A stretch of DNA of 12,976 nt from Naegleria gruberi (Eukaryota), in NCBI GenBank assembly GCA_000004985.1, contig GG738998.1. One strand, given 5' to 3'. The position numbers and the translations under genes are program-made. Positions 1-12,976 of the stretch are shown piece by piece; position 1 is the stretch's first letter; each line of letters opens with the position of its first letter. The notes below the pieces were generated by a model. It had not been told where the DNA came from, made no database searches, and saw only the letters and a list, made by a program, of their open reading frames with translations.

Positions 1-241
1 GTGTCACTTCTCTCCCTCGTTTCTCAGCAAAAGTGACACCTTTGGAATGTTTATGAACATCATCCAATTCTACTTCAACTGCATCCACAGCCACCTCCAT
101 TTCATTATCATTCCTTATTGTCATCTTGTTGGGTGAACTAGAATCATGTTGTTGTTGTATATGATGATTATTCATAGCACTCGACATTGTCTCCTCATCC
201 AGCGACGAATTACTTGTAGTACTTCCATTATTTGGCTCCAT
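1..241 (-). CDS. 5' portion of a gene running off the left window edge (ATG at 241-239); N/S/Q/H-rich low-complexity N-terminus, product unknown
   Basis: Reverse-complement reading from ATG at 241 is open for 80 codons to the window edge (MEPNNGSTTSNSSLDEETMSSAMNNHHIQQQHDSS...). The 6-frame track omits it because it has no in-window stop. An 80-codon open frame is unlikely by chance at this AT content. No domain recognised. Confidence 0.35.
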   Translation of the reverse strand, partial: MEPNNGSTTSNSSLDEETMSSAMNNHHIQQQHDSSSPNKMTIRNDNEMEVAVDAVEVELDDVHKHSKGVTFAEKRGREVT

Positions 242-891
242 TGGCAGCAACAGTGTTGTTGTTTGTTTTTTTCTTCTTGGTTTTCATGATCGCTCAATGA
301 TGATGATTGATAACAAATTGGCACAAAATAGTTGTTCGTCCTTCCTAGTTGAGTTTTTTGAGGTTTTATCAGTGGGTTTCATTTTTTTATGAGGATGTAG
401 AAAGAGCGGGAAAATTTGTTTGTTGCTTATTGGGGAGGATTAGTTGACCTATTAGAAGAATGTTCTGAAATGATGGTAATGGGATTGAGTTTTTTCATTG
501 CACAACAAATTAATAGTATGAAGTTCACCCGTTTTGTGCTGCACAGCTTATCATTGGCTTTCTGAAAAATGTCAAATGATGTTAAGTCCACACCAGTATG
601 CGATACTGGGGTCCGAGCCATACCAAATCATACCACTAGCTTGCTGTGCGTGGAATTACAATGCATCTATTGTAGTGGAATATTGTCGAAAAGTTGAAAA
701 TTTGTTTGAAAATGAAAAATGATTGAACAATTTTTTGTAAACCACTACAGAAATACCCAATTAATAGGCATTCGTAATAAAAATCTAGTATTTGTCATTG
801 ATTTTTACATGACACAATAGTGTCAACGGAAGGGAATTATTAACTCCGAATTTTAAACATCCCTCCGATAAAGAAAAAAACTGTAAAAAAA

Positions 892-1746
892 ATGCATCAA
901 CACGGAAAGCTCAGACGGGTGGTTATTTTGTTCACCTTCACTCTCATCATGATGTTGGTCATGGGACAAGAAACAGCCAAGACCAAACTCTTCAAGAATA
1001 TGATTTCCCGAACTCAAAATAATCAAAATTATAAAGGAAGTACTAAAATCGGAAGTGTTCAAGATGGAGTTTGGACCAATGTTTTCCAATTATTTGGATT
1101 CCGTTCAGCAAATAATCAAACAGATACTGATAATAATCCAAAATTTATTTCATTATTCTATGATGGAATTCATCAGAGAATGAGAATGGATGGAGCTGGT
1201 TTGGGAGGCCCTGCAGCTCAACTCTCTTCCACATCAGTTTTGTTTGAAATTTTGAGATATTATATGAATGTTGTGAGTGTTGATTTTTGTATCTTTGAAC
1301 ATTTGCATCCTAATTCTACTGCTTATGGAGCTAGAGTTTTCCCATTCAGTGGAAAGGGTACTGTGGCTGAAGGAGGATTCACTGTTGCCAAATATTCTGG
1401 AGCTAAATTGATTCAAAGTAATGCTATTCTTGAACCATCCAATTTGATTAATGGAATGCAAAAGAGAGTTTGTAATGTCTATAATTTGGATGGAAAGTCT
1501 GATCTTGCTATTGGTCTTGGATTTTACTTGTTCAATTATCAAGGACCTACCTATGTTGACATGACTTATTATGAAGATGCCAAGACAGGACAACCAGTAA
1601 GATTTGAAATGAAAGATTTGGGAGGTTTTAAGGGAATTACCTCTTGGGATGTATTGAATTTCCAATTCTTTAGTGATAAGGATGATTCTGCTAATGTATT
1701 TTCCAAAGATTTATTCTACTGGAATGCCAAACCAACTTGTCATTAA
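892..1746 (+). CDS. Secreted/membrane-anchored protein of unknown function (284 aa) with an N-terminal hydrophobic signal/anchor
   Basis: 284-codon uninterrupted ORF with an A-run start context (aaaaaaaATG). Residues 9-25 (VVILFTFTLIMMLVMG) are hydrophobic, consistent with a signal peptide. The stop overlaps an AATAAA motif (1744-1749). No recognisable family motif. Confidence 0.6.
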   Translation: MHQHGKLRRVVILFTFTLIMMLVMGQETAKTKLFKNMISRTQNNQNYKGSTKIGSVQDGVWTNVFQLFGFRSANNQTDTDNNPKFISLFYDGIHQRMRMDGAGLGGPAAQLSSTSVLFEILRYYMNVVSVDFCIFEHLHPNSTAYGARVFPFSGKGTVAEGGFTVAKYSGAKLIQSNAILEPSNLINGMQKRVCNVYNLDGKSDLAIGLGFYLFNYQGPTYVDMTYYEDAKTGQPVRFEMKDLGGFKGITSWDVLNFQFFSDKDDSANVFSKDLFYWNAKPTCH

Positions 1747-1983
1747 TAAAATATAACCTGAATTATTTCAGATATCTTACTCTTTTATTTAAGGAATACT
1801 TTCTGCTATTACACATAATTGAAATGTTGCTCTACTAGAAGAGCTTTAGGATATTCAAGTGTAAAATTTTACTTGTATGGGGGTTTGTTTTTCATCAATT
1901 ATCCAACTTGATTATCCGAAAGTTTGAATTTTCTTTAAATAGCTGAAGAATAGTAGAGATCCTCAACAATAACAACAAAAAGA

Positions 1984-2181
1984 ATGCAAGCCTTGGTTAT
2001 TGAAGATTACTGTATCCAACCAAATTTTAAACTAGTTTCGGATTTTGAAAAACCATCCAAGTTGAAAGAAAATCAAGTTTTGGTCAAGTTGAAAGCAGCT
2101 TCGGTCAACCCAGTCGATTACAAAATGAGAAACGGAGCCACAAGGAAAGCAACTCCAGTCAAATTTCCAACGACGCTATTG
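1984..2181 (+). CDS. Exon 1 of MDR-superfamily (zinc-type ADH / quinone oxidoreductase-like) gene; GroES-like N-terminal segment
   Basis: MQALVIEDY...QVLVKLKAASVNPVDYKMRNG matches the N-terminal consensus of MDR quinone-oxidoreductase-like enzymes (eVLVkv.AaslNpvDyk.r.G). A GTAAAA donor at 2182 ends the exon in phase 0. Confidence 0.55.
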
Positions 2182-2258
2182 GTAAAATATTAGATCAAGA
2201 GGGTGAACATTCGTTTAACAATCAACCTTTGACTCCTCCATTCGAAACTTCCAAAAAG

Positions 2259-2930
2259 AAAGAGTTGAAAATTCTCATATTAGGTGCTTCTGGAGGAACT
2301 GGTTTGAGTGCTTGTTTGATAGCTAAACAATTCCTTTCCCTATATTTCCAAACAAAGGTTTATGCTGTTTGTTCTGAGAGAAATATTGACATTGTTACAA
2401 AAATGGGAGCAGATGTTGTCATTGACTATACAAAAACATCATCCAAACCTAGAATAGATGGTGAATCTGAAAATCTGAAGAGTATTTGTCAAACCATTAA
2501 GGAAGACCATGGAGATTCTTATGTGGATATTGTATTGGATTGTGTTGGTGGAACTGAAATGTATTATCGTGACGTTTGCAATAATTTTGAGTGTAAGAAA
2601 GCAAGAGATGGTGTTGCATTCACAACCATTTCACCAAATGTTCCATTCGAACCAAATATGGGACTTTCTTCTTTGATGAAAATTGGATATTTTGTAGTTT
2701 CTAATAAGATTAAGTCATTATCGAGTGCTTATCCATCCTTCCACTTTGTTTTCATGGATAAGAACGTAAAAGATATGAATTTACTGATGAATCATATTGT
2801 AATTTCGAATCAAGTTTACAATCAACTTCCACTGATGGAATTTGAATTTTCTGCTCAAGGATTAAACGATGCACATAAACAAATGGAATCTCAAAGAACA
2901 GTTGGTAAAATCGTTATCAAAATTCAATAA
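2259..2930 (+). CDS. Exon 2 of MDR-superfamily oxidoreductase; Rossmann-fold NAD(P)-binding domain through C-terminus
   Basis: KILILGASGGTGLSACLIAK...MGADVVIDY is the classic GxxGxxG Rossmann motif of MDR enzymes. The C-terminal TVGKIVIKI is also typical. Acceptor AAAAAG at 2257-2258 keeps phase 0, giving a 77-nt intron (2182-2258). Stop is TAA at 2928-2930, with AATAAA immediately downstream. Confidence 0.6.
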   Translation, partial: KELKILILGASGGTGLSACLIAKQFLSLYFQTKVYAVCSERNIDIVTKMGADVVIDYTKTSSKPRIDGESENLKSICQTIKEDHGDSYVDIVLDCVGGTEMYYRDVCNNFECKKARDGVAFTTISPNVPFEPNMGLSSLMKIGYFVVSNKIKSLSSAYPSFHFVFMDKNVKDMNLLMNHIVISNQVYNQLPLMEFEFSAQGLNDAHKQMESQRTVGKIVIKIQ

Positions 2931-3135
2931 ATAACATCTTTGTTCAAGTTGACTTTGTGTGTAATCTTCACAGTAACGGAATTGGATTATATTCCAAACA
3001 ACTATTTCCAAATCAAGAAGGAATTGTTAAATTCGAATAATTTCATTGGCTTGAAAGTTAAAAATTGGTAATTCCAATCATTCGTTTGTAAGTAAGCGAA
3101 GGCAAGTTAATCTTTCAGTAGTTTCCCATTATTGT
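2926..3135 (-). pseudogene. Degenerate fragment homologous to the 3' (kinase C-lobe) part of the ankyrin-kinase gene at about 4722-4910
   Basis: Roughly 80% nucleotide similarity with indels to 4722-4910. Shared strings include 'ttggattatattccaaacaactatttcc', 'cttcattggcttga', 'aattccaat.attcgtttgt', 'gcaagttaatctttca' and 'ttcaataaat'. The minus-strand reading gives ERLTCLRLLTNE then a stop, versus the intact ERLTCFLSTNELLELF in the real gene. Confidence 0.5.
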
Positions 3136-3197
3136 GAACACCAATGAACAAATTCACCTTTAATTTTAATGATGCTGAATAATTCTTACAAAAAAAA

Positions 3198-4171
3198 ATG
3201 GAAGCAACAAGTGCACAATTAAATAATCCTTTTAGTGTTTTTGTTTCATCAAATAATGAAGTTTTTATTGCTGACTATAACAATCAAAGCATTAGAAAAG
3301 TATTACAAAATGGAAATATTGTAACAATAGCTGGAAATGGAGATAAAGGATTTAGTGGTGATAATTGTCTAGCAACAAGTGCACAATTAAATAATCCTAT
3401 TGGTGTTTTTGTTTCATCAATGAAGTTTATATTTCTGACTATTGTAATCATGTAATTAGAAAGATTTTACAAAATGGAACTATTGTAACAATTGCTGGAA
3501 ATGGAAAACCTGGATTCGGTGGTGATAATGGCCTAGCAACAAATGCACAGTTGAATTACCCTAGAAATGTATATGTTTCATCAAATAATGAAGTTTATAT
3601 TGCTGACTTTTGTAATCAAAGAATTAGAAAAGTATTACAAAATGGAAATATTATAACAATAGCTGGAAATGGAACTAAAGGATTTAGTGGTGATAATGGT
3701 CCTGCAACAAATGCACAATTAAATGGTCCTGCAGGCGTTTTTGTTTCAAATAATGAAGTCTATATTGCTGACTATAGTAATCATGTAATTAGAAAGATTT
3801 CACAAAATGGAACTATTGTAACTATAGCTGGAAATGGAAAACCTGGATTCAGTGGTGATAATGGACTTGCAACAAATGCACAATTATATAATCCTTCAGG
3901 CACTTTTGTTTCATCAAATAATGAAGTTTATATTTCTGATTGTTTTAATCATGTAATTAGAAAGATTTCACAAAATGGAACTATTGTAACAATTGCTGGA
4001 AATGGGAAAGGAGGATTCAGTGGTGATAATGGTCCTGCAACAAATGCACAATTATATAGTCCTTTAGGTGTTTTTGTTTCCTCAGATAATGAAGTTTATA
4101 TATCTGACTGTTTTAATCATAGAATTAGAAAAGTATTACATAATGGAAATATTGTAACAATAGCTGGAAAT
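3198..4171 (+). CDS. NHL-repeat (six-bladed beta-propeller type) protein; at least 6 tandem 55-56 aa repeats; 1-nt frameshift near 3419-3421; 3' end lost in N-gap
   Basis: Repeated unit ATNAQLxxPxGVFVSSNNEVYIADxxNHxIRKIxQNGTIVTIAGNGxxGFSGDNG recurs every 165-168 bp. The Y/F-V-(A/S)-D ... I-R-K-I ... G-x-I-x-T-I-A-G pattern is the NHL-repeat signature. Start context is aaaaaaaaATG. A single-A deletion in 'tcatcaaatgaagtt' shifts frame 0 to frame 2 (ORFs 3198-3455 and 3551 onward). The ORF runs into the 450-N gap. Confidence 0.6.
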
Positions 4172-4621
4172 NNNNNNNNNNNNNNNNNNNNNNNNNNNNN
4201 NNNNNNNNNNNNNNNNNNNNNNNNNNNNNNNNNNNNNNNNNNNNNNNNNNNNNNNNNNNNNNNNNNNNNNNNNNNNNNNNNNNNNNNNNNNNNNNNNNNN
4301 NNNNNNNNNNNNNNNNNNNNNNNNNNNNNNNNNNNNNNNNNNNNNNNNNNNNNNNNNNNNNNNNNNNNNNNNNNNNNNNNNNNNNNNNNNNNNNNNNNNN
4401 NNNNNNNNNNNNNNNNNNNNNNNNNNNNNNNNNNNNNNNNNNNNNNNNNNNNNNNNNNNNNNNNNNNNNNNNNNNNNNNNNNNNNNNNNNNNNNNNNNNN
4501 NNNNNNNNNNNNNNNNNNNNNNNNNNNNNNNNNNNNNNNNNNNNNNNNNNNNNNNNNNNNNNNNNNNNNNNNNNNNNNNNNNNNNNNNNNNNNNNNNNNN
4601 NNNNNNNNNNNNNNNNNNNNN
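4172..4621. other. Assembly gap (450 N)
   Basis: Run of n characters. ORF-track proteins containing X-runs across it are artefacts. Confidence 0.99.
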
Positions 4622-5028
4622 AAAATTGATCTTTTTTCATTAGTTTGAATTGTTTGTAATGTTGGAACTAATTTCCTTTTTTTGGAAGGTTGTTCTTTTT
4701 GTTCATTTTGTAAAATGTTTGCTGTTAATTTCAATAAATGTTTTTGTAATTCCGCAAATGATGGTCTTGATTTTGGATTATATTCCAAACAACTATTTCC
4801 TATTCTAATAACTTCATTGGCTTGATTGAGTGTTAAACAAGGAAATAATTCCAATAATTCGTTTGTTGAGAGAAAGCAAGTTAATCTTTCATTATTTTCA
4901 ATGTGTTTTTGAGAAAATAATTCATACATTGTAACTCCAAAACTGTAAACATCCAATGCCGTGAGAAGATATTCTTTTTGGAAATCTTTCGGTTTGTGTT
5001 GCATTCGTTTTTCATAAATTTCAGGAGC
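4622..5028 (-). CDS. Ankyrin-repeat Ser/Thr protein kinase, exon 3 (kinase subdomains VIII-XI and C-terminal tail; 3' end in gap)
   Basis: After splicing the protein reads ...TIGGTFQYM|APEIYEKRMQHKP...DVYSFGVTMYELFS..., the canonical GT..YMAPE and D.WS.G subdomains. Acceptor TTCTAAAG ends at 5029-5030 on the minus strand. The ORF continues into N-gap 4172-4621. Confidence 0.7.
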
Positions 5029-6453: not shown

Positions 6454-7117
6454 TTTTTTTGTACTTGGCCTTCAAAAAAGTTCAGAAATAAATTCAATAT
6501 TATTCTAGTTCGAAACGTTTCGAATGTACATCTTCTCCTTGAGCATTCTTAAATAATTGAATCAATGTTAAAAAACTTTTCGAAAAGACATCATCTACTA
6601 ATTTTATTATTTAAACAATGAATGGTGGAATGTGAGCAAAGCAATTTAATGTAGATTGAAATAAACACACCAAGAATAAAACAAATTGAAAATTTATTGA
6701 AAATTGTTGTGTATCAAGTTTGAAAATCAGCAAGATTTCCTACCTTGAAATTTACCATGTTGGAAAATTCACTGTTAGTGATGGTGTGATGATGATGACC
6801 ATTAAGATATTGGCCTTAATGATCGGAAGCGAACTTGCTGATGATAAAAGATATGATGAAGTGAAAATTCCACAACTCTATGAATACAAAGTGGAACAAT
6901 TCCAACTCTCTTGATGGTGATATTAGACATCCCTACTAATGATACTATGTTGTTGAAATTCAATCATCATGATGAAAATATATGGTGAATGATGAATACA
7001 CCAACAAGGTGAAAACTCACCAAAATTAAAAAGGTAATGAATTTATTAGACAGGAATTTATAGGTCATAAAGACAAACGTTACTTTCCAGCTCACAAAAA
7101 TCGTCAAAAGTCAACCT

Positions 7118-7540
7118 CCCGCTCATTTTTGTTGACGCATGTTTTGACGATTTTATAGTCATGAATGACGCCTTTGTTTATGCTTGTTAAGGTGTCATTG
7201 GGACGGTGTTGTGGACGTCAAAATGACGTTTTTTTTCGTCATTTTGACGGTGTCAATTTGAGAGTCATTAAGACGTCAAAAAAAGCGTCCTCAATGACGT
7301 CTCAAAAAGTGTCTCCAATGACGTTGCAGAATGATTATTAATTTTTGATAAATTGAAATTTTATTGAACTATTCATAATTCTTACAAGTTGGAAATCTTT
7401 CATCTTGAACCATTTCACACTGAGTGAAACTCAATGCTGTGAAAGATTCACACCGTGTGAATTAATATTGTAAAAGATTTCACACCATCAAAGATGACAA
7501 GGAAATTGACAAGAGTTTCTTTAAAAACGGAAATAAAATT
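7118..7540 (+). repeat. Copy A of transposon left arm (begins with the 12-bp terminus CCCGCTCATTTT; truncated by N-gap)
   Basis: 7118-7499 is base-for-base identical to 8079-8460 (offset 961) through 'gagtttctt'. The last roughly 20 bp differ by small indels before the gap at 7541. Flanks upstream of the two copies are unrelated, so this is not a tandem duplication of locus sequence. Confidence 0.85.
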
Positions 7541-7590
7541 NNNNNNNNNNNNNNNNNNNNNNNNNNNNNNNNNNNNNNNNNNNNNNNNNN
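7541..7590. other. Assembly gap (50 N, conventional unknown-size gap)
   Basis: Run of n characters immediately after repeat copy A. Likely a repeat-induced contig break. Confidence 0.99.
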
Positions 7591-7937
7591 TTTAATAATT
7601 TACTGTATGGATTATTTTCCAAATTTTTCGAATGTTTTGGATTATTTCTAATAAGATACATGGCAATCCAATTAATCGGATCGATCTTTGAGTAGATAGT
7701 ACTCTTTAATTTTTCATATTCTTGTTCCTCTTCCGATTTCGGATCAACTGTTGAATACTCCTTTAATAAGGATTGAAAAGCAGGAATCAGCACTCCCAAA
7801 ATATTTTCCTCCAAATAAAACGACAGCTCATCGCCACCCTCCCGAGCCAATCTAATGGTTGTTTCATCCTCTCCGAGCGATTCCTCAACATGAAAATTGT
7901 ATTCGTGATGAAGAGGCGAAGCAAAGTGCTTTTTCAT
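7591..7937 (-). CDS. Dpy-30/RIIa-like dimerisation-docking domain protein (3' end in gap)
   Basis: ATG at 7937 in an aaaaaaATG context. SFYLEENILGVLIPAFQSLLKE plus DPINWIAMYLIRNNP resemble the two helices of the Dpy-30 motif (YL...V.P.L..GL..L ... DPI.FLA.YLL.N), with about 25 aa inserted between them. The ORF is open into the gap at 7590. Confidence 0.5.
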
Positions 7938-8078
7938 TTTTTTAAATTATTTTTATCGTAGTTATTTTTGGCGCCATTTTAGTCAATCTGAATGGTAATT
8001 AGTTTAAGATCATAAAATATTAGAATTCAAAGAAGTAAGCGAGCGAGTGATAAATATTTTCATTTTGTTTGCCCACTA

Positions 8079-8501
8079 CCCGCTCATTTTTGTTGACGCA
8101 TGTTTTGACGATTTTATAGTCATGAATGACGCCTTTGTTTATGCTTGTTAAGGTGTCATTGGGACGGTGTTGTGGACGTCAAAATGACGTTTTTTTTCGT
8201 CATTTTGACGGTGTCAATTTGAGAGTCATTAAGACGTCAAAAAAAGCGTCCTCAATGACGTCTCAAAAAGTGTCTCCAATGACGTTGCAGAATGATTATT
8301 AATTTTTGATAAATTGAAATTTTATTGAACTATTCATAATTCTTACAAGTTGGAAATCTTTCATCTTGAACCATTTCACACTGAGTGAAACTCAATGCTG
8401 TGAAAGATTCACACCGTGTGAATTAATATTGTAAAAGATTTCACACCATCAAAGATGACAAGGAAATTGACAAGAGTTTCTTATAAAAACGTGAAATAAA
8501 A
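8079..8501 (+). repeat. Copy B of transposon left arm (terminus plus TGACG subterminal array plus TTTCACAC motif cluster)
   Basis: Identical to 7118-7499. Contains the palindromic core AAAATGACG-T8-CGTCATTTT (8185-8210) and six GTGAAA/TTTCAC(AC) motifs in both orientations at 8375-8450. Confidence 0.85.
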
Positions 8502-8665
8502 ATTTGAATTGATATGTCTTGTAAATGAATTGAAATGATGTAATATAATTGATAACTGATACGACTTACTAGTATGTTGAGGTATTTTTTTTGAAAAATA
8601 TTTTAAACTGGTTGCAAAAATAGAAAGTGTTTATTTTAGAGATGAAGCCAAATATGGAAAGACAT

Positions 8666-10840
8666 TTAATATAATGTAAAGGCCATTTTGTGAATTGGTT
8701 TGAAGTGAAAAGAGCCATTAATTTGCTGGCATATTGCTGGTATGAAATCTTGTTTGATAGTGTCTTGTGAGACGGTGATTGTTGTGCCATTAACAGCATG
8801 TCGAATCTCAATTTGTGAATAATTTGGAGAAAATGAATTGACTTGATAAATTTCTTTAGAGGGAGTGTGTAACAAGTAATCTCTTTTGCTATTGATTATA
8901 TAATTACCACAGACACATTCTAGTTTACGATTGGGAGGTTTCAAGTTCAATAATTGTACCAAATTTACCATATCAAAGAATAGAATTGAATATCTTAAAG
9001 AATTGGCACATTTGAAGGGTTTTGAGAGAATGTTATTCATTGCCTCAAAAATAAATGCGTTATTGCACCACAATGGACCATATAGACGGCAGTTCATTAC
9101 CATTTCAGCTGCTATGTGAAAATTTGGAGAGCAAAAATTAGCATCCTTCTTTTGAAAAAAGTACAGAACTGAGTTTAGCTGTTTCTGCAATAATGGAAGA
9201 TCTTCTAATTGAAATGAGTCCATTAGCTTATCAATAATTCTCACATATTGAATAATGTGTTGAACTATTTCTTGAATTTCACTATAGCTCGGAATTTCCT
9301 CAAATAATTCGAGATAATAATGACACAAAATGTAAACTTCAATGGATTTCAGGTGATTGATATTTTTTGCAATGGATCTTGGGTGCTTGTGAAAAAAGGA
9401 GGGAAACTTCTGTTTTAAATAAATGACATCAAATTCTTTCCAATATCGTTCATCAATTAAATTGAGAAATTTCACCAAAATACCTTCATAATTGTAATGC
9501 ATGTTATCATATGAACAGAGACATGTTGGATTAGGATTGAATGGTTGTAATAGGATTGGAGAAACACTATCCATTCCGGGTGGTAGATTTGAGTTTGGAA
9601 AATTGTTAATGAGAGAAATCTCATTGTGATATTCTCTGTATTTGAATTTTTCAAAAACCTCAATGAGTTCTGATTTTCCATTCAATACTACTAATCTTGT
9701 TCGAAACTCCAATGGATAAACTTTGTGAGAACCAGATGTATCTTCACCCTTAGTGTTACACAAGTGACAAAAATAAAATCCTTGGCGTTTAAAGAATAAA
9801 ATCTCTGATCTTGCAGGAAGGTCAGCAATTACTCGTTCAATTATCATTTCCAAATTAAGGTTTTTTTGATTTGAATTTAGACAATTCAGATCATTCATTA
9901 TTACTTTGAGTCCAATTTCAATATCTATCTTATCAGGTTTCCTTGGTAAAATGGCCCATAGAAAATTATTGGTAGATTTCTTTCGATCAGAAGGACTCAT
10001 TTCATTAAACTGTACAATGAAATTATAGAAATTATTCAAGCTCTTTTTAAATGGTGAAACTCCATCACCATTGAGAGTACCAGTGAGTCTTTTTGTTGAA
10101 ATGGTTTCATCAATCCAAGGTTGGTGAATTTTTCTAAATATTTCACCTCCTTGACGATCAGAAATTGTTGAGCTATCATTATGACCTTGGTAATTGAGTG
10201 TTTCATTAATAAAGTTTGGTTCAAAAGCTATTCTTTCTTGGAAAGCATATTCTAAAGGGCGCCAAAATAAATAATCATCTTTTTGCCAAATCTTTTCACA
10301 AGAACAATGAGTGTGTTGATTATCATGTTGAAAATCTTTACATTCTCTGCAATAGTGTATCTTTTTGGTCTTGCAATTCAAGTTATAATGTCCATAAAAT
10401 CCATTCAATGTTAGCATCTGCGAGAAATCTTCTTGGGGTGCCTCTTTAACCAAATTAGCACATTTTCCAATTAACTGGAGCATACTTTCAAGATTACTTT
10501 CTGATAATTGAGCTGAGGTTGTAAATTTCAAAATCTCGTTCATTATACGCTTTATAGGAAGAGAGAGATTATTCCAATGGTGAAGATTAAAATCAACTTG
10601 AGTAGAAGACCATTCAGATTCGCTTGTTAGTGTGTCTTCTTCTCTAATATCTTGAATTGGATCTATGTCATCTGTTGTATAACTTGACTCATCATCCTCA
10701 TCACTAATTTCTAATCTTTCTTCAATGTCATCACTCATTTTGTCATTACTGTTTGAAAAGTTGGTGGAATCTTGGTTATATCGAATATTGGCTAAGTATA
10801 TTGAGTTCTTGTTGGGCATTTCTTTTTGTTTAAGAAACAT
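8666..10840 (-). CDS. Transposase, Transposase_21 (Tnp2/En-Spm TnpD/KDZ) family, 724 aa
   Basis: GTLNGDGVSPF...FNEMSPSDRKK...FLWAILPRKPDKIDIEIGLKVIMNDLNCL aligns by eye to the Transposase_21 core (lSlStDGfnPF ... YNLPP..R.K...fl..LIPGPk.P.d.IDVYL.PLieEL..LW). The N-terminal Cys/His cluster IHYCRECKDFQHDNQHTHCSCEKIW resembles the transposase-associated zinc domain. The C-terminal LYGPLWCNNAFIFEAMNNIL resembles the GPV..RWMYPFERYM motif (DUF4218) of CACTA transposases. Single uninterrupted ORF. The reverse-complement region around 8629-8634 ('tttatt') supplies an AATAAA near the 3' end. Confidence 0.8.
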   Translation of the reverse strand: MFLKQKEMPNKNSIYLANIRYNQDSTNFSNSNDKMSDDIEERLEISDEDDESSYTTDDIDPIQDIREEDTLTSESEWSSTQVDFNLHHWNNLSLPIKRIMNEILKFTTSAQLSESNLESMLQLIGKCANLVKEAPQEDFSQMLTLNGFYGHYNLNCKTKKIHYCRECKDFQHDNQHTHCSCEKIWQKDDYLFWRPLEYAFQERIAFEPNFINETLNYQGHNDSSTISDRQGGEIFRKIHQPWIDETISTKRLTGTLNGDGVSPFKKSLNNFYNFIVQFNEMSPSDRKKSTNNFLWAILPRKPDKIDIEIGLKVIMNDLNCLNSNQKNLNLEMIIERVIADLPARSEILFFKRQGFYFCHLCNTKGEDTSGSHKVYPLEFRTRLVVLNGKSELIEVFEKFKYREYHNEISLINNFPNSNLPPGMDSVSPILLQPFNPNPTCLCSYDNMHYNYEGILVKFLNLIDERYWKEFDVIYLKQKFPSFFHKHPRSIAKNINHLKSIEVYILCHYYLELFEEIPSYSEIQEIVQHIIQYVRIIDKLMDSFQLEDLPLLQKQLNSVLYFFQKKDANFCSPNFHIAAEMVMNCRLYGPLWCNNAFIFEAMNNILSKPFKCANSLRYSILFFDMVNLVQLLNLKPPNRKLECVCGNYIINSKRDYLLHTPSKEIYQVNSFSPNYSQIEIRHAVNGTTITVSQDTIKQDFIPAICQQINGSFHFKPIHKMAFTLY

Positions 10841-10872
10841 GATGGATCTTGATCAAGGTAAACTTTAAAAAA

Positions 10873-12303
10873 ATGGCTCCAAAGAAAACCAAGAAAGCTA
10901 AAGAGCGAGCTATTTCTATCAAATGGAAAGTTCAAAAAAGTAATACCAAAACTTCTTCTAGTACTGATGAAAATTCATCCATTCTCACAAATTTGAAAGG
11001 AAGTGCCTATAGTGCCTATCAAACCTATTTCGCAAAGGAAGAGGCAGAAAAGTCTTCTCTTGTTAAAGAATTTGTTCAAATAATTAATTATTGGTGTATT
11101 TCAAGAGAGAGAGATAGAAAGTTAGTTAATTTTCAAAGTGAATCCTTAGCTAATTTGGTCCAATTTTTGAAAACTGATACATTTTACCAAGAATTTAAAA
11201 TAGATATCAAAGATTTCACTCTGAATCTGTTGGCAACAAAGGATCTTGCAACAAAGAATCATAGATTAGAAGTTGATTCAGTCCAAGAACCAAAATTAAA
11301 TGATTTCGTAAACATATTAGAAATGGATGATACAGATGTCAATTACTATATCATTCCAGCAATTGGTAAAGTAGTGAACGAAGATCCATTCCAAGTTTCA
11401 ATCGAACACCACAATCACATCCACTATGAGAAAAAGTATTCCAAAAAAACTCCAATCTCAGTATCGAAGGACATGACGAGCGTAATAGAAGCCTATGAGG
11501 AGACAGAGCCAAACTTTTCAACCATGCTACCTAGTAATAGAATTTCTGTTAACATTACCCCATCTAAAAGAAAGTCAAAAGCAAAGAAACCGTCTTGTAA
11601 TGAAATTTCAGATAATAACTCAGAACCAACCAATAAGATGTCAACTAGAAAAAACAAATCTAAAACAGCTGCTCCAAAGAGGAAGAATCAATCTGATGAA
11701 GATGAATCAAGTACTGATACAGATAATGATTCTGAACCAAGCAAGAAAAAACAATTTAAACCATCTTCCAGTAAACAACTAGTGAAGACAGTGAAGAAGA
11801 CCATGTCAGTTCATGATTCAGATAGTGATGAATCCACCACTGAAGATTCAGAAAATGGTACTAGTGACTCCACAGAATCTGTCTATTTTCAAGTTCGTCA
11901 CGTTAATGGAAAACGGGAATATGTGATTGTTCCAGAGCATGTCGATTACATCTTTGATTTGATAGATAAGGACAAAGCTTTTCCAGAGTTCATCAATGCC
12001 ATTATCCAATGTGAAAAGGTATTAACTGACCTCACAAAAAGGTTTGCTCATCTATTTTCAGGGCTTGCATTCAACACTACCGTAAATGGTATAACTTATT
12101 CAATTCCTCCAGACATTATCAAAATGCTTATTGGTAATGTGACTCAAAAACAGTGCTTGGAATTGTTAGCACATCATCACTTCAAGAAACCTATAGGAGA
12201 ACTCACAACTGATCAAAGAACAGTATGTAGAAAGTTCTTTGAAGCAAGGGGATGGGATAAAGAAAGTGTTCGGAAGGCAATCAATAGTTTGATCAAAGAA
12301 TAA
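10873..12303 (+). CDS. Transposon ORF2: 476-aa lysine/serine/acidic-rich protein with a structured C-terminal domain of about 150 aa; function unknown
   Basis: The ORF track starts at a TTG (10849). The first ATG is 10873, in a ctttaaaaaaATG context matching other genes here, and is only 32 bp from the transposase ATG (10840) on the other strand. The basic N-terminus (MAPKKTKKAKER) and poly-acidic/Ser tracts (SDEDESSTDTDNDSE, SVHDSDSDESTTEDSENGTSDSTES) suggest a nuclear, possibly DNA/chromatin-binding protein. No known motif in the C-terminal VYFQVRHVNGKREYVIVPEHVDYIFDLI... region. Confidence 0.6.
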   Translation: MAPKKTKKAKERAISIKWKVQKSNTKTSSSTDENSSILTNLKGSAYSAYQTYFAKEEAEKSSLVKEFVQIINYWCISRERDRKLVNFQSESLANLVQFLKTDTFYQEFKIDIKDFTLNLLATKDLATKNHRLEVDSVQEPKLNDFVNILEMDDTDVNYYIIPAIGKVVNEDPFQVSIEHHNHIHYEKKYSKKTPISVSKDMTSVIEAYEETEPNFSTMLPSNRISVNITPSKRKSKAKKPSCNEISDNNSEPTNKMSTRKNKSKTAAPKRKNQSDEDESSTDTDNDSEPSKKKQFKPSSSKQLVKTVKKTMSVHDSDSDESTTEDSENGTSDSTESVYFQVRHVNGKREYVIVPEHVDYIFDLIDKDKAFPEFINAIIQCEKVLTDLTKRFAHLFSGLAFNTTVNGITYSIPPDIIKMLIGNVTQKQCLELLAHHHFKKPIGELTTDQRTVCRKFFEARGWDKESVRKAINSLIKE

Positions 12304-12520
12304 TTTCTAGACATGATGTTAAGCTTGATGAACAAGTCAAGCTTGTGAAATTTGTATTTTTTTTTTAAAATTTTCAAAAATATTCACAAGTCTGAAATAC
12401 GTCACCTCCTCCTTCACTGATTTTCATCATCAAAACAACACAAAACAAACAACAACAAATAAACAACACATTACAACATCAAGTAGAACACAACAGAATA
12501 TCGATAATTAACTTTGGAGT

Positions 12521-12600
12521 AACTTTATGCAAAATCGTCAGCGATGACGTCAAAAAAAGCGTCAATCCACCATCAGGAATGACGAAATAAAATGAGCGGG
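12521..12600 (-). repeat. Transposon right arm (inverted terminus AAAATGAGCGGG plus TGACG/CGTCA subterminal repeats)
   Basis: Reverse-complement of 12589-12600 is CCCGCTCATTTT. Upstream motifs are aatCGTCAgc, gaTGACGTCaaaaaaaGCGTCaat and gaaTGACGaaat. The subterminal sequence is related to, but diverged from, the left arm, as is typical for CACTA-like elements whose two arms differ. Confidence 0.7.
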
Positions 12601-12693
12601 CTTTAGCGTTTTAAAAAAAAAACCATCACAACCAAACTGCAGCAAAATCTGTTGTACATATTTCGGGTTACCCAAAAGCTGTAATTGATAAAA

Positions 12694-12976
12694 GATGAAT
12701 CCACATCAACAAACACCACAACAAAATACTGAACAAAGTGAATCAGTAAATTACTATTACAATTCGAACAGTGATACAAATACCACAAGTAATTCCATTG
12801 CTAGTAAGACAAATCTCTTTATGTATGGTGGAGGTACATTGCTATTACTCCTTTCATTGGCATTGTTTGGAATTGGTGCACTTCTCTATGGAGTTGTAAA
12901 TTCAATTTCTGTTTCGTATGTCCATCAAGGATGTTGTAATGTTACTGTTTCTAGTGGTGCTCTAGTTATGATGATG
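12694..12976 (+). CDS. 5' part of a gene for a small membrane protein (N-terminal Q/N/T-rich region then a transmembrane helix), running off the right edge
   Basis: ATG at 12694 (aaaagATGaat). The frame is open for 94 codons to the window end: MNPHQQTPQQNTEQSESVNYYYNSNSDTNTTSNSIASKTNLFMYGGGTLLLLSLALFGIGALLYGVV... The hydrophobic stretch GTLLLLSLALFGIGALLYGVV is helix-like. The gene lies 94 bp outside the transposon's right terminus. Confidence 0.4.

Follow-up and report, generated by a model that had tools for sequence, protein, structure and literature searches.

How does the same left arm of a transposon come to stand twice on one short scaffold, in direct orientation and with part of a host gene between the two copies? 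The question is raised by GG738998.1, a small, draft and gapped scaffold of the heterolobosean amoeba Naegleria gruberi NEG-M, which we analysed over its entire length of 12,976 bp (hereafter the window). The two copies of the arm, here called copy A and copy B, start 961 bp apart, at 7118 and 8079. Copy B opens a complete DNA transposon of 4,522 bp (8079-12600, plus strand), and between the arms lie a scaffold gap and 488 bp that hold the 5' portion of a gene labelled Dpy-30-like. An initial annotation of this DNA offered three readings of the arrangement: (a) a second, very recent insertion whose body is hidden in the gap, (b) a nested or tandem pair of elements, and (c) a scaffolding artefact, in which a contig broken by the repeat and carrying the Dpy-30-like gene was placed inside the repeat. 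Most likely the doubling of the arm is a commonplace artefact of draft assembly at a young transposon. Of the three readings (c) is the best supported, and we modestly favour it in the form of two identical insertions that were collapsed into one, the tandem arrangement being a product of scaffolding.

The scaffold consists of three contigs. Contig 1 (1-4171) is separated from contig 2 (4622-7540) by 450 N (4172-4621), and contig 2 from contig 3 (7591-12976) by exactly 50 N (7541-7590). Copy A (7118-7540, plus strand) makes up the last 423 nt of contig 2, begins with the terminal inverted repeat of the element at 7118-7129 and, as had been noted, runs straight into the gap. Contig 3 is the sum of three parts: a 488-bp stub, the 4,522-bp element and a right flank of 376 bp. 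Comparing the window with itself, we found 7118-7521 to equal 8079-8482 without a single mismatch over 404 bp, so that the identity originally described for 7118-7499 and 8079-8460 holds and extends further. To the left of the two copies no identity was found in the same comparison, in agreement with the earlier description of unrelated upstream sequences. Over its final stretch (7522-7540) copy A still tracks copy B, minus three single bases within 19 nt (TTTCTT-TAAAAACG-GAAATAAAA-TT against TTTCTTATAAAAACGTGAAATAAAAATT in copy B), and then the gap begins. Given the perfect identity over 404 bp and the confinement of the deletions to the very end of contig 2, a low-quality contig end or read tail would explain them better than divergence between two copies. 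We also considered by eye whether the last 14 nt of contig 2 could be the start of a right terminus, as in a miniature deletion derivative of the element, and rejected this candidate, which fits no better than three read-tail deletions. As a separate observation, also made by eye, the left arm about 410 nt inside its end (8488-8500, ACGTGAAATAAAAAT) shares a short direct similarity with the right terminus (12583-12593, ACGAAATAAAAT); recombination between the two would yield a miniature element of about 430 bp.

Evidence that bears on the question comes from the stub between the arms. The Dpy-30-like gene runs on the minus strand from its ATG at 7937 down to 7591, where the gap cuts it, and the 488-bp segment 7591-8078 thus holds 141 bp upstream of the gene plus codons 1-115 of 156. 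At its other edge the segment abuts copy B at a TA target. A metagenome contig of 2,903 bp from ENA (L001) is 99.4% identical to exactly this segment (L001:38-526), and the homology ends precisely at 8078, the terminus of the element, and at the edge of the gap. Past the point corresponding to 8078 L001 continues with AATAATTAACCAAAAAAAATGACTC (AATAATTAACC...), which is found nowhere in the window, and its target site is unoccupied (CCAC-TA-AATAATT). On the other side it carries the gene's remaining part and, convergent with it, a gene for a 563-aa protein with a Pfam match to the IQ motif, both absent from the window. The IQ protein of L001 is 100% identical to XP_002669079.1 of NEG-M, and this gene lies together with the full, 156-aa Dpy-30-like protein XP_002669106.1 on a NEG-M scaffold of 195,009 bp. 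The same convergent pair of genes is present in N. lovaniensis. An element-free copy of the gene, such as the initial annotation had suggested looking for, is seen in L001 with its empty site, and NEG-M holds the intact gene on the 195,009-bp scaffold. Since the intact gene and its IQ neighbour are elsewhere in NEG-M, and since the continuations seen in L001 are absent from the window, the segment 7591-8078 is a copy, truncated and out of place, of a different locus, here called Y.

As for the identity of this gene, the earlier claim of a gene between the copies stands, with 115 of 156 codons present, and the name attached to it is weakly founded. The match to Pfam PF05186 (Dpy-30) scores 18.2-20.3 bits, under the cut-off of 22, and covers only positions 28-42 of the 42 in the profile. 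Judged by this match, 'Dpy-30-like' is a weak label.

Both copies of the arm begin at true insertion junctions. For junction B, where the stub meets the element, this follows from the homology to the empty site, which breaks off where the inverted repeat begins. The left flank of copy A, formed by sequence upstream of an ankyrin/kinase gene, ends in GTCAACCT, and the right flank of the element (12601-12976, plus strand, reaching the end of the scaffold) starts with CTTTAGCG. Three of three copies of relatives in N. lovaniensis are flanked by duplications of 2 bp, and we took this rule over for the window. The CT left of copy A (7116-7117) matches the CT with which the right flank begins (12601-12602), making the two a putative target-site duplication, whereas the TA left of copy B (8077-8078) does not match it. 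Nor does the right flank CTTTAGCG match the continuation AATAATTAACC of the empty site in L001. By the 2-bp rule, with CT and CT on the one hand and TA on the other, the junction of copy A and the assembled right end would be a matched pair at one locus, which we call X, and junction B would belong to a different insertion. The empty locus X predicted from this pairing (TCGTCAAAAGTCAAC..TTAGCGTTTTA, joined GTCAACCTTTAGCG) had no match in metagenome and prokaryote genome contigs.

The favoured explanation rests on three of these observations, namely the truncated copy of Y, the non-collinear continuations in L001 and the failure of junction B to pair with the right end. It posits two or more insertions in NEG-M whose left arms are identical. 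One, at locus X, would be the scaffold's own, where CT closes the left flank at 7117 and opens the right flank at 12601. The other would lie at locus Y, 141 bp upstream of the Dpy-30-like gene, in a TA target with the junction CCCACTA, and would exit into TAAATAATTAACC. The assembler would have merged the identical bodies of the two elements into contig 3, keeping the 488-bp stub of Y on the left and the 376-bp stub of X on the right; that contig 3 joins different loci through one body is suggested by its left junction, which is of Y, and its right junction, which is not. The true left flank of X would have gone into a separate contig 2, ending in a low-quality tail after 423 nt of arm. Mate pairs reaching from X into the element would then have placed contig 2 before contig 3. 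As the two contigs would in truth overlap by about 0.9 kb, a minimal gap of 50 N would have been written between them. The apparent direct repeat with a gene between its copies would thus be one arm displayed twice and, with it, a piece of a different locus that is out of place. Of all this, the two junctions, the anatomy of the element, the foreign origin of the stub and the disagreement of junction B with the right end were observed directly. We assume that the two stubs (488 and 376 bp) and the 423-nt arm are all shorter than one sequencing read. An insertion at Y in the hemizygous state is plausible, since Naegleria has been described as, for the most part, diploid and heterozygous with plastic ploidy (PMC9928731).

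Artefacts of collapsed repeats and forked contigs are well known from the general behaviour of assemblers, and the window resembles those of draft shotgun scaffolds in several respects. One contig ends inside a high-identity repeat, the next consists of the entire repeat flanked by short stubs that derive from different loci, and the gap between the contigs is of minimal size. It differs in one respect: a second large scaffold bears a near-twin of the inner stub, ending at almost the same base, which a plain collapse does not require. This near-twin is XP_002678381.1, a third copy of the 5' part of the Dpy-30-like gene, annotated as 'partial' with 111 aa on a NEG-M scaffold of 502,116 bp and identical to the copy in the window; it stops 4 codons before the point where the stub in the window meets the gap. 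That two contigs break off in a unique gene no more than about 14 nt apart suggests a real breakpoint near 7591, something not predicted by a pure collapse. The left end of contig 3, moreover, matches L001 perfectly up to the gap, unlike a low-quality read tail. The agreement of CT with CT amounts to 2 bp, with a chance probability of about 1 in 12. Finally, the assembly history, which we infer, presupposes shotgun reads and mate pairs, a platform, an assembler and a read length, as well as 50 N as the floor for a negative gap estimate; within the window this floor is supported only by the two gap lengths, each a multiple of 50. All these points weigh against a simple collapse.

The near-twin and the clean left end of contig 3 also give substance to the opposite view, that the arrangement is real and that the scaffold shows a composite transposon (macrotransposon), or a product of gap repair, carrying a fragment of the Dpy-30-like gene. 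We regard this as a serious though unlikely alternative. The order would then be the left flank of X, CT, a left arm (of a full or partial element), the 488-bp fragment, the complete element, CT and the right flank of X. Two routes may lead there: two elements could have inserted 488 bp apart in direct orientation at Y, their outer ends later mobilising the host fragment to this locus, or repair synthesis could have copied the element at Y, read 488 bp past its left end and been joined to a partly copied arm. Macrotransposition by Ac/Ds, as well as CACTA elements and Pack-MULEs that carry fragments of host genes, provide precedents. The window shares with them host DNA between two ends in direct orientation, a matching outer duplication and a gene copy that is truncated here but intact at another place; it differs in that the join across the gap is putative, an inner right end cannot be seen and only one candidate copy is readable. 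The outermost ends, 7118 and 12600, are both flanked by CT, as for a single mobile unit, but this is equally expected for a simple insertion, and a 2-bp match is weak. The right edge of the fragment is a true insertion junction in the ancestral Dpy-30-like locus, its left edge lies in mid-coding sequence and is clean up to the gap, and the copy on the 502-kb scaffold ends within 4 codons of it, as though the fragment, fixed in its boundary, had travelled together with the element. If the inner bodies were identical, the assembler would collapse them and leave the same gap. However, no right-arm sequence appears at 7591, where the contig might well have reached it; the deletions that close contig 2 have the look of errors in a read tail and not of a junction; the right flank ends after 376 bp, as fits a repeat contig; and the transposase is annotated once in NEG-M, with no second body assembled here or beside the 502-kb copy. 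Should the scaffold nevertheless be right, the transposon would have picked up the promoter and the 5' two-thirds of a host gene between two left arms and moved them to at least one new locus, perhaps two in view of the 502-kb copy, a course of events that we consider distinctly unlikely. A nested or tandem pair of elements, as first proposed, survives only in the form of such a composite element or gap-repair product. A nested insertion is rejected, for the inner piece is host DNA and not sequence of the element.

Alternatively, ectopic recombination between X and Y could have produced a real chromosome with the left side of Y, the element and the right side of X, in which case contig 3 would be correct and only its join to contig 2 wrong or allelic; together with other structural or haplotype variants we think this quite improbable. 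Junction B (TA) and the right end (CT) do derive from different target sites and as a pair do not match the empty site in L001, and the heterozygous diploidy and plastic ploidy of Naegleria (PMC9928731) would favour such variants. Yet the left side of Y stops after 488 bp instead of continuing through the gene, nothing speaks specifically for recombination, and more events are needed than for a collapse. The remaining possibility, a simple second insertion into the Dpy-30-like coding sequence with a 4.1-kb body hidden in the gap, is hardly credible. Copy A does enter the gap in the right orientation, and the coding sequence is interrupted there. But the left of copy A should then hold the 3' part of the Dpy-30-like gene and the IQ gene, of which the window contains nothing; the flank is instead the region upstream of the ankyrin/kinase gene, which refutes this reading in its simple form, and its CT pairs with the far right end. 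On balance we return to the collapse of two identical insertions as the preferred explanation.

A further proposal concerned a motif just outside copy A, which had been taken as a hint at an older element end and hence an insertion hotspot. The motif AAAATCGTCAAAAGTCAAC (7097-7115, plus strand) resembles the reverse complement of bases 14-37 of the left arm, with 5 nt missing. Its 10-mer indeed occurs four times in the window, against 0.07 expected, and the coordinates first given for it need correction to 7097-7106 and 12531-12540 (both plus strand); the other two occurrences are at 7145-7154 and 8106-8115 (both minus strand). The resemblance amounts to a 13-mer plus a hexamer in one flank, with a BLAST E-value of 0.037, and the motif contains the only CGTC in the 664-bp flank. 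At the Y junction and the junctions in N. lovaniensis nothing similar was found. Not being repeated at the other junctions, the motif is a single observation and does not amount to evidence for a hotspot.

What, then, is the element itself? Twelve-base-pair perfect terminal inverted repeats (CCCGCTCATTTT at 8079-8090, AAAATGAGCGGG at 12589-12600), subterminal arrays and a transposase define a complete transposon from 8079 onwards and bear out the description of the repeated segment as its left arm. The subterminal arrays contain many short direct and inverted repeats, and GACG/CGTC stands at 67 per kb over the first 223 bp (8079-8301) and at 60 per kb over the final 83 bp (12520-12602), compared with 1-2 per kb elsewhere. 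The transposase open reading frame (8666-10840, minus strand) has 724 aa and its product is 100% identical to the N. gruberi predicted protein XP_002668619.1, annotated with 690 aa. Its own match to Pfam Transposase_21 is weak (E-value 0.005, 16.4 bits) and lies below the cut-off of 28.6. A profile built from this protein and six relatives matched 7,313 cluster representatives. When 48 sampled relatives and the window protein were scanned against Pfam, 44 of these 49 sequences matched Transposase_21 (best E-value 3e-16) and 45 matched DUF1258. In the alignment of the relatives D259, D340, E599, C361 and H575 are invariant and C358 is nearly so. The window protein has the conserved C358-x2-C361, while at position 579, the second histidine of an H-x3-H motif, it has E where at least 90% of the aligned sequences have H. 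A search of the profile against the sequences of solved structures returned nothing meaningful.

Divergent from the transposase gene lies a second open reading frame, ORF2 (10873-12303, plus strand, 476 aa, XP_002668617.1), which had no Pfam match even at E-values up to 1; its UniRef name, 'SPK domain-containing', has no Pfam support. The C-terminal half of ORF2 has a counterpart in XP_002673305.1 (221 aa), with 219 of 221 residues (99%) identical, on a NEG-M scaffold of 339,217 bp. This is one more copy of the element, slightly diverged or truncated, and it shows the family to be multi-copy in NEG-M, which speaks for the collapse of two insertions.

Relatives of the element are found in N. 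lovaniensis as three 5.9-kb copies with 99.5-99.9% mutual identity, the same layout of two open reading frames and CCCGC...GCGGG termini. Their target duplications are AA, GA and TG; a fourth relative (L010) has two candidate right ends, which leaves its duplication ambiguous. A metagenomic relative also has CCCGC termini, and relatives share the divergent second open reading frame, to which in the N. lovaniensis element ORF2 shows no similarity by BLASTP. A 5.1-kb relative occurs on three metagenome and Logan contigs (L005-L007) with an identical left flank and three different right flanks. One left flank being common to all three, its left end is undefined: either it lies further out, or these are branch contigs of an assembly graph. 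In N. lovaniensis PYSW02000069.1 (L003:8410-14256) genes with adh_short and nSTAND1/ATPase domains lie immediately to the right of the element, twice, in an inverted duplication. A scan of metagenome, genome and viral contigs with the terminus of the element gave no true match; one hit (L008) was dismissed as chance, in a GC-rich contig with no other similarity.

Among known systems the closest are the CMC transposons (CACTA/EnSpm-Mirage-Chapaev), especially Mirage-like and Plavaka-like elements with 2-bp duplications. The element shares with them a DDE transposase whose relatives match Transposase_21 (tnp2) and DUF1258, short inverted termini, subterminal repeat arrays and a second open reading frame. 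Target duplications in CMC transposons measure 2-5 bp, and those of the N. lovaniensis copies (2 bp), like the CT/CT of the window, fall within this range. There are differences too. The transposase in the window itself stays below the Pfam threshold and carries E at the second H of H-x3-H, and ORF2 has neither a detectable family nor detectable similarity to the second open reading frame in N. lovaniensis. The termini are CCCGC...GCGGG and not CACTA or CA..TG, which argues against a classic CACTA/EnSpm element. Membership in CMC is compatible with this, because 5'-CACTA / CA..TG-3' termini hold 'in most cases' according to the cited description. We conclude that the element belongs to the CMC clade as a young and new member of this known group, its termini being other than CACTA and its target duplications measuring 2 bp as in Mirage and Plavaka. 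It is a recently active transposon of the cut-and-paste type, very young and probably still mobile. Among the papers listed in literature searches on N. gruberi transposable elements and genome assembly, and on Naegleria and CACTA or transposase, none has Naegleria transposons as the subject of its title or abstract (Repbase being outside the scope of this search), and the papers that were searched by term do not describe this family.

The rest of the window holds features that stand apart from the transposon. The open reading frame in the right flank, which starts at 12695 and runs to the end of the scaffold, gave no homologue. Three blocks in direct orientation with 87-94% identity link 2982-3125 and 4773-4899, about 1.78 kb apart; they resemble the 3' exon of the kinase gene, repeated upstream of open reading frames with NHL repeats, and flank the NHL array and the 450-N gap. 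The array itself (3087-4171) encodes NHL-type repeats in tandem units of about 166 nt. As it enters the 450-N gap directly, its length is probably under-represented in the assembly.

For users of the N. gruberi genome, the scaffold should not be taken to show a tandem pair of elements or a disrupted Dpy-30-like gene, and the fragment 7591-8078 should not be counted as a copy of the gene while the join is unconfirmed. What the locus does document is a young transposon of the CACTA/Mirage clade in Naegleria, with unusual CCCGC termini and 2-bp target duplications, of which two insertion junctions are visible and for one of which a near-identical strain shows the empty site. If the arrangement were to prove real, it would be a case of a host gene fragment captured by a transposon of this kind, in a eukaryotic lineage that has been little studied.

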